Numbered from the stretch's first letter, positions 1-516 are shown. The stretch is 516 nucleotides of DNA from Escherichia coli (GCF_003334815.1 NZ_QOWO01000129.1), one strand, 5' to 3'. The notes: generated by a model not told the origin, from the sequence alone. A program made the numbers and translations.

Positions 1-113
1 TATGCAAGATTTGCCTGAACAGCACGATTCTGCATGATGTCGATTTGTGCGATTGCGTCCTTCTGCTGATCACCGGTTGGCTGATAAGTGGTGTTAAAAG
101 AAAATGCGCTCAT
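1..113 (-). CDS. N-terminal ~37 codons of a protein-coding gene (hypothetical protein); gene continues leftward beyond position 1
   Basis: ATG at 113..111 on the minus strand, preceded by AGGAGG (118..123) with a 4-nt spacer. An in-frame stop lies upstream at 149..147, so this ATG is the first start in the frame, and the frame stays open to position 1. Translation: MSAFSFNTTYQPTGDQQKDAIAQIDIMQNRAVQANLA. I do not recognise the family. The plus-strand frame 3 is also open over 3..131 but gives a Cys-rich peptide with no start, so the minus strand is favoured. The gene is absent from the supplied ORF track, presumably because it is edge-truncated. Confidence 0.55.
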   Translation of the reverse strand, partial: MSAFSFNTTYQPTGDQQKDAIAQIDIMQNRAVQANLA

Positions 114-117
114 GTTT

Positions 118-123
118 CCTCCT
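118..123 (-). promoter_or_regulatory. Shine-Dalgarno sequence (AGGAGG) for the minus-strand CDS starting at 113
   Basis: Plus-strand CCTCCT at 118..123 is AGGAGG on the minus strand, 4 nt upstream of the ATG. The spacer is on the short side but the SD core is perfect. Confidence 0.6.
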
Positions 124-143
124 GTGTTTAATGTTTTCAGCCC

Positions 144-158
144 CCATCACCCGTTGAG
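144..158. repeat. Direct repeat copy 1: CCATCACCCGTTGAG
   Basis: Matches 220..235 (CCATCACCCGTTTGAG) apart from one extra T. The copies start 76 bp apart, in the region upstream of the minus-strand gene. Confidence 0.8.
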
Positions 159-172
159 TTTCGGGAGCCGCG

Positions 173-188
173 GTTTTGACGTTTTGCG
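173..188. repeat. Tandem octamer GTTTTGAC-GTTTTGCG
   Basis: Two adjacent 8-mers differing at one position. The second copy starts the TTTTGCGG motif that recurs at 327..334, as a variant at 503..511 and inverted at 293..300. TTGACG (176..181) resembles a -35 hexamer, but I found no convincing -10 at 16-18 bp spacing. Confidence 0.55.
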
Positions 189-219
189 GGGACCTGCCGT
201 TTGTTCCCTCCGGTATTAA

Positions 220-235
220 CCATCACCCGTTTGAG
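220..235. repeat. Direct repeat copy 2: CCATCACCCGTTTGAG
   Basis: 15/16 identity with 144..158, with a single T insertion. Candidate paired protein-binding sites; function not established. Confidence 0.8.
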
Positions 236-292
236 AACCTTCGCCGCAAGGGGCATCACTGCCACGACCGGAAACGACTGTCCGGGGGCAGA

Positions 293-334
293 CCGCAAAA
301 GTTTTTGCCTGCTTTTGGGCAAAAAGTTTTGCGG
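293..334. repeat. 42-nt imperfect palindrome / hairpin-capable inverted repeat
   Basis: Arms 293..311 and 316..334 pair as 293-300 with 327-334 (8 bp), one G/G mismatch at 301/326, 302-309 with 318-325 (8 bp), and two G-U wobbles at 310/317 and 311/316, around a CTTT loop (312..315). That is 16 Watson-Crick pairs. No U-tract follows on either strand, so it does not look like an intrinsic terminator; an operator-type dyad or RNA hairpin is more likely. Confidence 0.85.
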
Positions 335-339
335 GATGT
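327..339. repeat. Direct repeat TTTTGCGGGATGT (left copy; partner at 503..516)
   Basis: Near-identical to TTTTGCCGGGATGC at 503..516 with one extra C. The two copies flank the GC-rich domain. The core CGGGATGT (332..339) is also the reverse complement of ACATCCCG (489..496). Confidence 0.75.
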
Positions 340-489
340 ACATTTCACCCCTGGACTGGCGGAGACGGTTGTGGCTGTCTGTGCCCCCGGCGACAGGGAC
401 TCATACGGGTGTGTGGCACCGGACACAACAACGGGCAGGGACCCGCCGCAACGACGAAGAGCGCGTGCGCGAAACGGCGTTGCCCCTCA

Positions 490-515
490 CATCCCGGCGG
501 CCTTTTGCCGGGATG
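490..515. other. GC-rich stem-loop (9-bp stem, 8-nt loop); function undetermined
   Basis: 490-498 (CATCCCGGC) pairs perfectly with 507-515 (GCCGGGATG), with 7 of 9 pairs G-C, around loop GGCCTTTT. The window ends at 516, so a plus-strand U-tract cannot be checked. There is no U-tract on the minus-strand side (the reverse complement of 480..489 is TGAGGGGCAA). Confidence 0.7.
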
Positions 516-516
516 C
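503..516. repeat. Direct repeat TTTTGCCGGGATGC (right copy; partner at 327..339)
   Basis: See 327..339. This copy also forms the 3' arm of the 490..515 stem-loop. Confidence 0.75.

Follow-up and report, generated by a model that had tools for sequence, protein, structure and literature searches.

The best described systems of the kind reported here are single-stranded DNA promoters of conjugative plasmids, foremost Frpo of the F plasmid (also named ssiD, Frpo1 or ssp1a; Masai and Arai 1997; Couturier et al. 2023). According to the accounts of Masai and Arai (1997) given in PMC9849209 and PMC7690428, the Frpo stem-loop recreates a -35 and a -10 box and recruits the RNA polymerase of E. coli, and the resulting RNA can prime DNA synthesis. 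Deletion of Frpo1 abolished the early expression of ygeA in transconjugants and lowered transfer from ~92% to ~25% (PMC9849209), and the start sites of class 1 promoters have been mapped by 5' RACE (PMC12672017). Transcripts of ssp1a and ssp1b (Frpo1 and Frpo2) act in vivo as primers for the complementary strand, and both promoters are switched off once the DNA has become duplex (bioRxiv 10.64898/2026.01.09.698686). Frpo2/ssp1b, which precedes ssb in F and in F-like plasmids, drives ssb-psiB and not the oriT-proximal operon. Further class 1 elements are ssi1-3 of the IncI1 plasmids ColIb-P9 and pESBL (Bates 1999; Nasim 2004; Wen 2025), and five reference Frpo/ssi sequences are compiled in Supplementary Table 2 of Samuel et al. 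2024 (PMC11541004). Promoters of classes 2 and 3 (ssp2, ssp3 and 'Frpo3'; upstream of ardB/klcA and M.EcoGIX) lie in the same leading region and are likewise T-strand hairpins that rebuild a promoter; ssp2 is also a replication roadblock, which was not reported for ssp1a (bioRxiv 10.64898/2026.01.09.698686). That the Frpo elements of F are GC-rich relative to their plasmid has already been remarked upon in a preprint (bioRxiv 10.1101/2025.04.03.647016).

Here we analyse a stretch of 516 nucleotides from Escherichia coli (GCF_003334815.1, NZ_QOWO01000129.1, positions 1-516), hereafter the window, which the initial annotation had taken to contain the boundary of a possibly inserted element on account of its GC steps. 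The element is of an already known kind (Frpo1/ssiD/ssp1a); the composition had been correctly seen, and the insertion reading is wrong. With a probability that we put at about 93%, window 141-487 is a Frpo1-type (ssiD, ssp1a, class 1) single-stranded DNA promoter of the leading region of an F-like conjugative plasmid. It aligns end to end with F ssiD (D90178.1), the experimentally characterised member of this promoter class, at 91.5% identity (349 of the 351 nt of D90178.1 align). In the F reference sequence (NC_002483) the identity is 92.5% for Frpo1, which is found upstream of the gene in the ygeA position, and 85.3% for Frpo2, which is found upstream of ssb. The window and Frpo1 of F thus have 91.5-92.5% identity over the whole element and share the same long imperfect hairpin, the location, with the hok/flm locus on one side and the first operon after oriT on the other, and the T-strand orientation. 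They differ by ~30 substitutions or indels, several of them compensatory in the stem, and in the gene that would be driven, a 98-aa protein in the plasmid type of the window and an unrelated 95-aa protein in F; moreover, the plasmid type of the window carries three copies of the element, whereas F has two.

Matches to the window were found in thousands of enterobacterial plasmids, with identities of up to 98.6%. More than 5000 PLSDB records match it, ~79% of them predicted to be conjugative, and in complete E. coli genomes plasmids account for 10564 of the 10676 matching places, the median genome having 3 of them; the phage collection searched yielded no match to the window. The other 112 matching places are chromosomal (e.g. 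in NZ_CM135810.1, 98.6% identity) and presumably represent integrated F-like plasmids. In the IncFIA/FII plasmid CP099088.1, the window is situated 2 kb from traM/oriT, between the Hok toxin gene and the hypothetical gene for the 98-aa protein, in a leading region whose further genes include psiB, a parB-like gene and ssb. The leading genes of this plasmid are all encoded opposite to the window's + strand, and each of its three repeat copies is placed upstream of a leading-region operon. The nic motif of F, which we take to be GGGGTGT/GGTGCTTT, occurs 5' of the element on the strand equal to the window's + strand in F and in a Klebsiella IncF plasmid, and CP099088.1 has a variant with two mismatches. 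The + strand is therefore the transferred strand (T-strand), and transcription of the leading genes uses it as template.

It is this strand, in the leading region near oriT, that folds. As single-stranded DNA, the + strand reaches -113.1 kcal/mol, compared with -73.8 +/- 4.8 kcal/mol for shuffled sequences (z = -8.2), in a fold consisting of a single imperfect hairpin with 116 pairs (158-476; Table 1) and several internal loops, including 215-220 opposite 414-417. We aligned 11 homologues (from three plasmids, F, a Serratia plasmid and two insect-metagenome elements), in which 88.3% of the cells are standard-paired, compared with 41-48% when the partners were slid by 1-3 columns, and in which 19 pairs have changed on both sides, compared with 3-9 in the slid controls. 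Such compensatory changes support the predicted hairpin as an imperfect single-strand stem-loop of ~300 nt that has been conserved in evolution. The apical stem (293-334, helix 10), which is also found in the ssi repeats of ColIb-P9, is 94.6% paired and shows 4 double changes, and 13 of the 14 class 1 sequences that we compared have a CATTT core in the adjoining bulge (339-347). In all 14, ColIb-P9 ssi1-3 included, the + strand is 7-17 kcal/mol stabler than its complement, as one would predict if the strand that really folds tolerates G-T pairs. The sequence GTTTTGCGGG was seen twice in the hairpin, low on the 5' arm (181-190) and in the 3' half of the apical stem (326-335).

Table 1. Coordinates of the features recognised in the 516-nt window; strands are given relative to the window.
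Feature	Position	Strand	Basis
First 37 codons of the 98-aa leading-region gene; ATG at 113-111	1-113	-	Annotated 98-aa CDS in CP099088.1
Shine-Dalgarno GGAGG, four bases before the ATG, in the gene-specific spacer 114-130	118-122	-	Sequence
F ssiD/Frpo orthologue (Frpo1, ssp1a)	141-487	+ (transferred and template strand)	91.5% identity; nic motif for the strand
Direct repeat, exact, 12 nt: CCATCACCCGTT	144-155 and 220-231 (in 5' arm)	+	Repeat search; conserved in alignments
Hairpin 5' arm	158-309	+	Pair map, folding, covariation
TTGACG, alternative -35 candidate, 5' arm	176-181	+	TTGAC invariant in 11 of 11 F-type copies
TATTAA, 5' arm, -10-like unpaired patch for an alternative placement	214-219	+	Internal loop 215-220 opposite 414-417
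A/T-rich apical stem CCGCAAAAGTTTTTGCC / GGCAAAAAGTTTTGCGG	293-334	+	Inverted repeat I1, 17 nt, 94% complementary
Apical loop TGCTTTTG	310-317	+	Pair map
Hairpin 3' arm, holding most of the '67% GC block'	318-476	+	Pair map, covariation
Unpaired 9-nt bulge TACATTTCA, 3' arm	339-347	+	Pair map
TACATT, alternative candidate, in the bulge	339-344	+	Pair map, scan
TGGACT, preferred candidate -35, non-template arm	352-357	+	Alignments, ColIb sequences, scan
CTGTCT, candidate -10, 17 nt after TGGACT	375-380	+	Pair map, scan
GCGACA, alternative candidate, used together with an internal loop	390-395 (with 413-418)	+	Pair map, scan
Separate 9-bp hairpin CATCCCGGC / GCCGGGATG with 8-nt loop	490-515 (L001 12490-12515)	+	Folding, pair map

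The other described elements resemble the window to different degrees. Frpo2/ssp1b belongs to the same repeat family (85-87% identity) and shares both the fold and the ~600-bp repeat unit, GC-rich upstream extension included, but its apical and -35-proximal stretch differs from that of the window (TGGACAGTCAGTG against TGGACTGGCGGAG). With ssi1-3 of ColIb-P9 and pESBL, the window has the apical half in common (GTCCGGGGG...CAAAA-TTTTT stem...CATYT bulge...CCCTGGAC...TGTGG...CCCCCGG), and in these, too, the T-strand folds better than its complement, whereas the basal half of their hairpin is shorter and unrelated in sequence and, unlike the window, they contain neither TTGACG nor the CCATCACCCGTT repeats. 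The class 2 and class 3 promoters show no sequence similarity to the element in the window.

Any DNA hairpin also folds as RNA, and the structure might act at the RNA level, as a structured 5' UTR, an antisense RNA or a small RNA transcribed from ordinary double-stranded DNA. The - strand folds well too (-104.8 kcal/mol, z = -7.3), and a transcription start at the base of the hairpin would place the whole hairpin in the mRNA. We nevertheless regard this as very improbable, given that the G-T pairs favour the + strand in 14 of 14 homologues and this strand is the template, not the mRNA-sense strand, of every flanking gene. Furthermore, the promoter scan detected no canonical sigma-70 promoter on either strand of the duplex sequence, and an Rfam scan at a permissive threshold returned only microRNA noise below threshold and no family above it; the terminator scan of the duplex gave a single terminator-like site, at chance level. 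In published work, the activity was confined to single-stranded DNA and disappeared upon conversion to duplex (PMC9849209; bioRxiv 10.64898/2026.01.09.698686).

For the single-stranded promoter, our own data provide homology, position, strand, fold, covariation and strand asymmetry, and recognition by RNA polymerase, early expression, priming and switch-off are taken from published work on the F element; from the ~92% identity, the identical position and the conserved fold we infer that the copy in the window is probably active as a promoter as well. During conjugation, the + strand of the window would arrive in the recipient in single-stranded form, as part of roughly the first 2.5 kb that follow the nick at oriT. 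Positions 158-476 would then snap back into the 116-pair hairpin and recreate a sigma-70 promoter that is double-stranded except for part of its -10 region, to which the RNA polymerase of the host could bind in order to transcribe the + strand towards its 5' end (leftwards in the window), and the gene starting at 113 would be driven before any complementary strand exists. The hairpin transcripts might also prime the synthesis of the complementary strand, and once the DNA is double-stranded, the hairpin would be gone and the promoter off. Elements of the Frpo type control the first seconds of plasmid establishment (anti-defence, SOS inhibition and second-strand priming), and this control is of relevance to the spread of antibiotic resistance.

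Where the promoter boxes lie within the hairpin is less clear-cut: the pair map and a weight-matrix scan suggest four candidate placements, none with a strong -10 hexamer, and the scan found no single strong promoter that is positionally conserved across the F-type and ColIb-type copies. Our preferred placement, for which the odds are roughly even, is on the 3' arm, with TGGACT as the putative -35 and CTGTCT as the putative -10 box. TGGAC is retained in 13 of the 14 class 1 sequences (TAGAC in the remaining one), and T376, C379 and T380 of the candidate -10 are unpaired. The A/T-rich apical stem may possibly act as a mimic of an UP element, positioned once the 9-nt bulge is looped out. This placement would put the transcription start near template positions 244-250, with a 5' UTR of ~135 nt.

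The stepwise GC content from which the initial annotation had started (~45% to 55% to 67%) was recovered on recomputation, with 45.1% in 1-113, 54.4% in 114-339 and 67.5% in 340-502 (chi-square test of heterogeneity among the three segments, p = 8e-4). The leading region around the window has 56% GC overall, so that both the low-GC gene and the high-GC right arm depart from an intermediate background. In bins of 100 nt, a ramp from ~0.5 through 0.57 to 0.67-0.71 is seen at all three repeat copies of CP099088.1, where it precedes different genes and is independent of the GC content of the gene downstream; the gradient is not specific to the junction in the window. The two arms of the hairpin have 62.9% (3' arm) and 58.6% GC (5' arm), the 5' arm having T where the 3' arm has G and also containing an A/T-rich unpaired patch. 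The steps are most probably an outcome of the architecture, i.e. of a GC-rich, stem-forming repeat that abuts an AT-richer cargo gene, and the larger G content of the 3' arm resides in the G-T pairs, mismatches and unpaired patches. The proposal that the GC-rich sequence is either horizontally acquired or functionally constrained holds in its second part, as the sequence belongs to a conserved, structured single-stranded DNA promoter. A sharp rise in GC beside a plasmid gene can therefore signal a structured single-stranded DNA promoter rather than an insertion.

An insertion had been suggested by two direct repeats, at 327-339 and 503-516, which would represent target-site duplications around a mobile or foreign segment at 340-502, with the GC steps separating host from acquired DNA. 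The repeat is real (TTTTGCGGGATG at 327-338 and TTTGCCGGGATG at 504-515; 13 of 14 bases, one indel) and the block it encloses has 67.5% GC, yet we consider this explanation hardly credible. The block is mostly the 3' arm of the hairpin: positions 340-476 pair along their whole length with 158-309, with covariation, so that their removal would destroy the element. Each copy of the repeat is the 3' half of a local inverted repeat, the first belonging to the apical stem (293-334) and the second to the small hairpin (490-515), and in Frpo2- and Frpo3-type copies the first repeat copy reads TTTTGTGGGCTGT while the second is unchanged, which makes for a weaker match there. A search for strains that lack 340-502 and retain a single copy of the repeat, as proposed in the initial annotation, was carried out with an artificial empty-site query; the best 25 of more than 5000 plasmid matches all carry the block, aligning as two pieces that span 377 nt, and the block is already present in F ssiD. 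The inner ends (340-... and ...-502) do not form an inverted repeat, and the window contains no transposase, integrase or other mobility gene, its ORFs being short and without family match. An insertion sequence or transposon with target-site duplication was thus rejected (no terminal inverted repeats, no mobility gene, no empty site in the best 25 of more than 5000 matches).

That the region codes for protein is next to impossible, because, even though a 68-aa ORF (window 137-343, - strand; 12137-12343 in locus L001) is labelled 'single-stranded DNA-binding protein' in GenBank records and as many as three 'hypothetical proteins' are given for the window in RefSeq, the internal ORFs have no NCBIfam match and run within or across both arms of a hairpin whose conservation is at the DNA level and whose copies differ by indels and compensatory changes, and the true plasmid ssb is located elsewhere (L001 16964-17491, 5 kb away). 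The label of the 68-aa ORF looks like a propagated mis-annotation, and public annotations thus place spurious ORFs inside the Frpo hairpin; the ~400 nt beyond the coding fragment contain no credible gene.

A boundary does exist in the window, though not at 340-502, which is mostly a hairpin arm: the true module boundary is at ~131-146, where the conserved Frpo repeat meets the gene-specific ribosome-binding region. Homology to F stops at 133, copy 3 of CP099088.1 diverges at 145, and the spacer 114-130 is common neither to F nor to copy 3. The 98-aa gene occupies the position of ygeA in F and its product is unrelated to the 95-aa protein of F, without similarity between the two (positions concerned: 1-133 in the window, 11817-12113 in L001 and 12033-12320 in L004). 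The 98-aa protein is encoded in 1784 plasmids and falls into two allele groups, one with ~69% and the other with at least 90% identity to the query; searches of Pfam, NCBIfam, PHROGs and the PDB sequences gave no match to it, nor does the 95-aa protein of F match a PHROG family. Plasmid lineages have exchanged the gene driven by Frpo1, an indication that Frpo is a portable expression cassette for the cargo of the leading region.

The repeat unit is larger than the hairpin and is cut by the window: the GC-rich stretch continues for ~200 nt past 516, and the unit as a whole comprises ~570-600 bp, from window 117 to ~205 nt beyond 516. The extension beyond the window (L001 12517-12720) has 68% GC and several small hairpins and is common to all three copies of CP099088.1 and to both Frpo1 and Frpo2 of F; the GC-rich upstream extension as a whole is not significantly structured (z = -1.7). 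The separate hairpin at 490-515 (helix 12), before which the published ssiD fragment ends, is 98.6% paired and kept in every full-length copy, with one compensatory change from T:A to C:G in the insect-metagenome copies. It was considered as an intrinsic terminator and rejected, for the stem is present but there is no T-run on either strand and the terminator scan made no call.

Of the two copies of the direct repeat CCATCACCCGTT, the inner one pairs with 400-411 and the outer one is just outside the stem, ~30 nt from the start codon; the repeat extends to GAG with one indel. Both copies and their partner in the 3' arm covary across haplotypes (CCCG, CCTG and CCTT versus CGGG and CAGG), a joint change that could reflect alternative pairing or mere linkage. 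The outer CCATCACCCGTT(T)GAG copy (144-158) could compete with the inner one (220-235) for 400-411, and, if so, the alternative pairing would be able to tune promoter opening or the access to the ribosome-binding site. That the ~600-bp unit holds functional modules beyond the Frpo hairpin, namely the 490-515 hairpin, the ~200-nt extension and the duplicated CCATCACCCGTT(T)GAG motif, is in our view rather doubtful, and no role for any of the three is described in the Frpo literature examined. In two IncF plasmids, a gene for a group II intron reverse transcriptase (ltrA; L002 24474-26141 and L003 1104-2771) adjoins a Frpo copy, and in L002 the upstream extension of this copy diverges from the others after ~100 nt; at the ltrA-adjoining copy, the intron may have inserted into the extension of the repeat.
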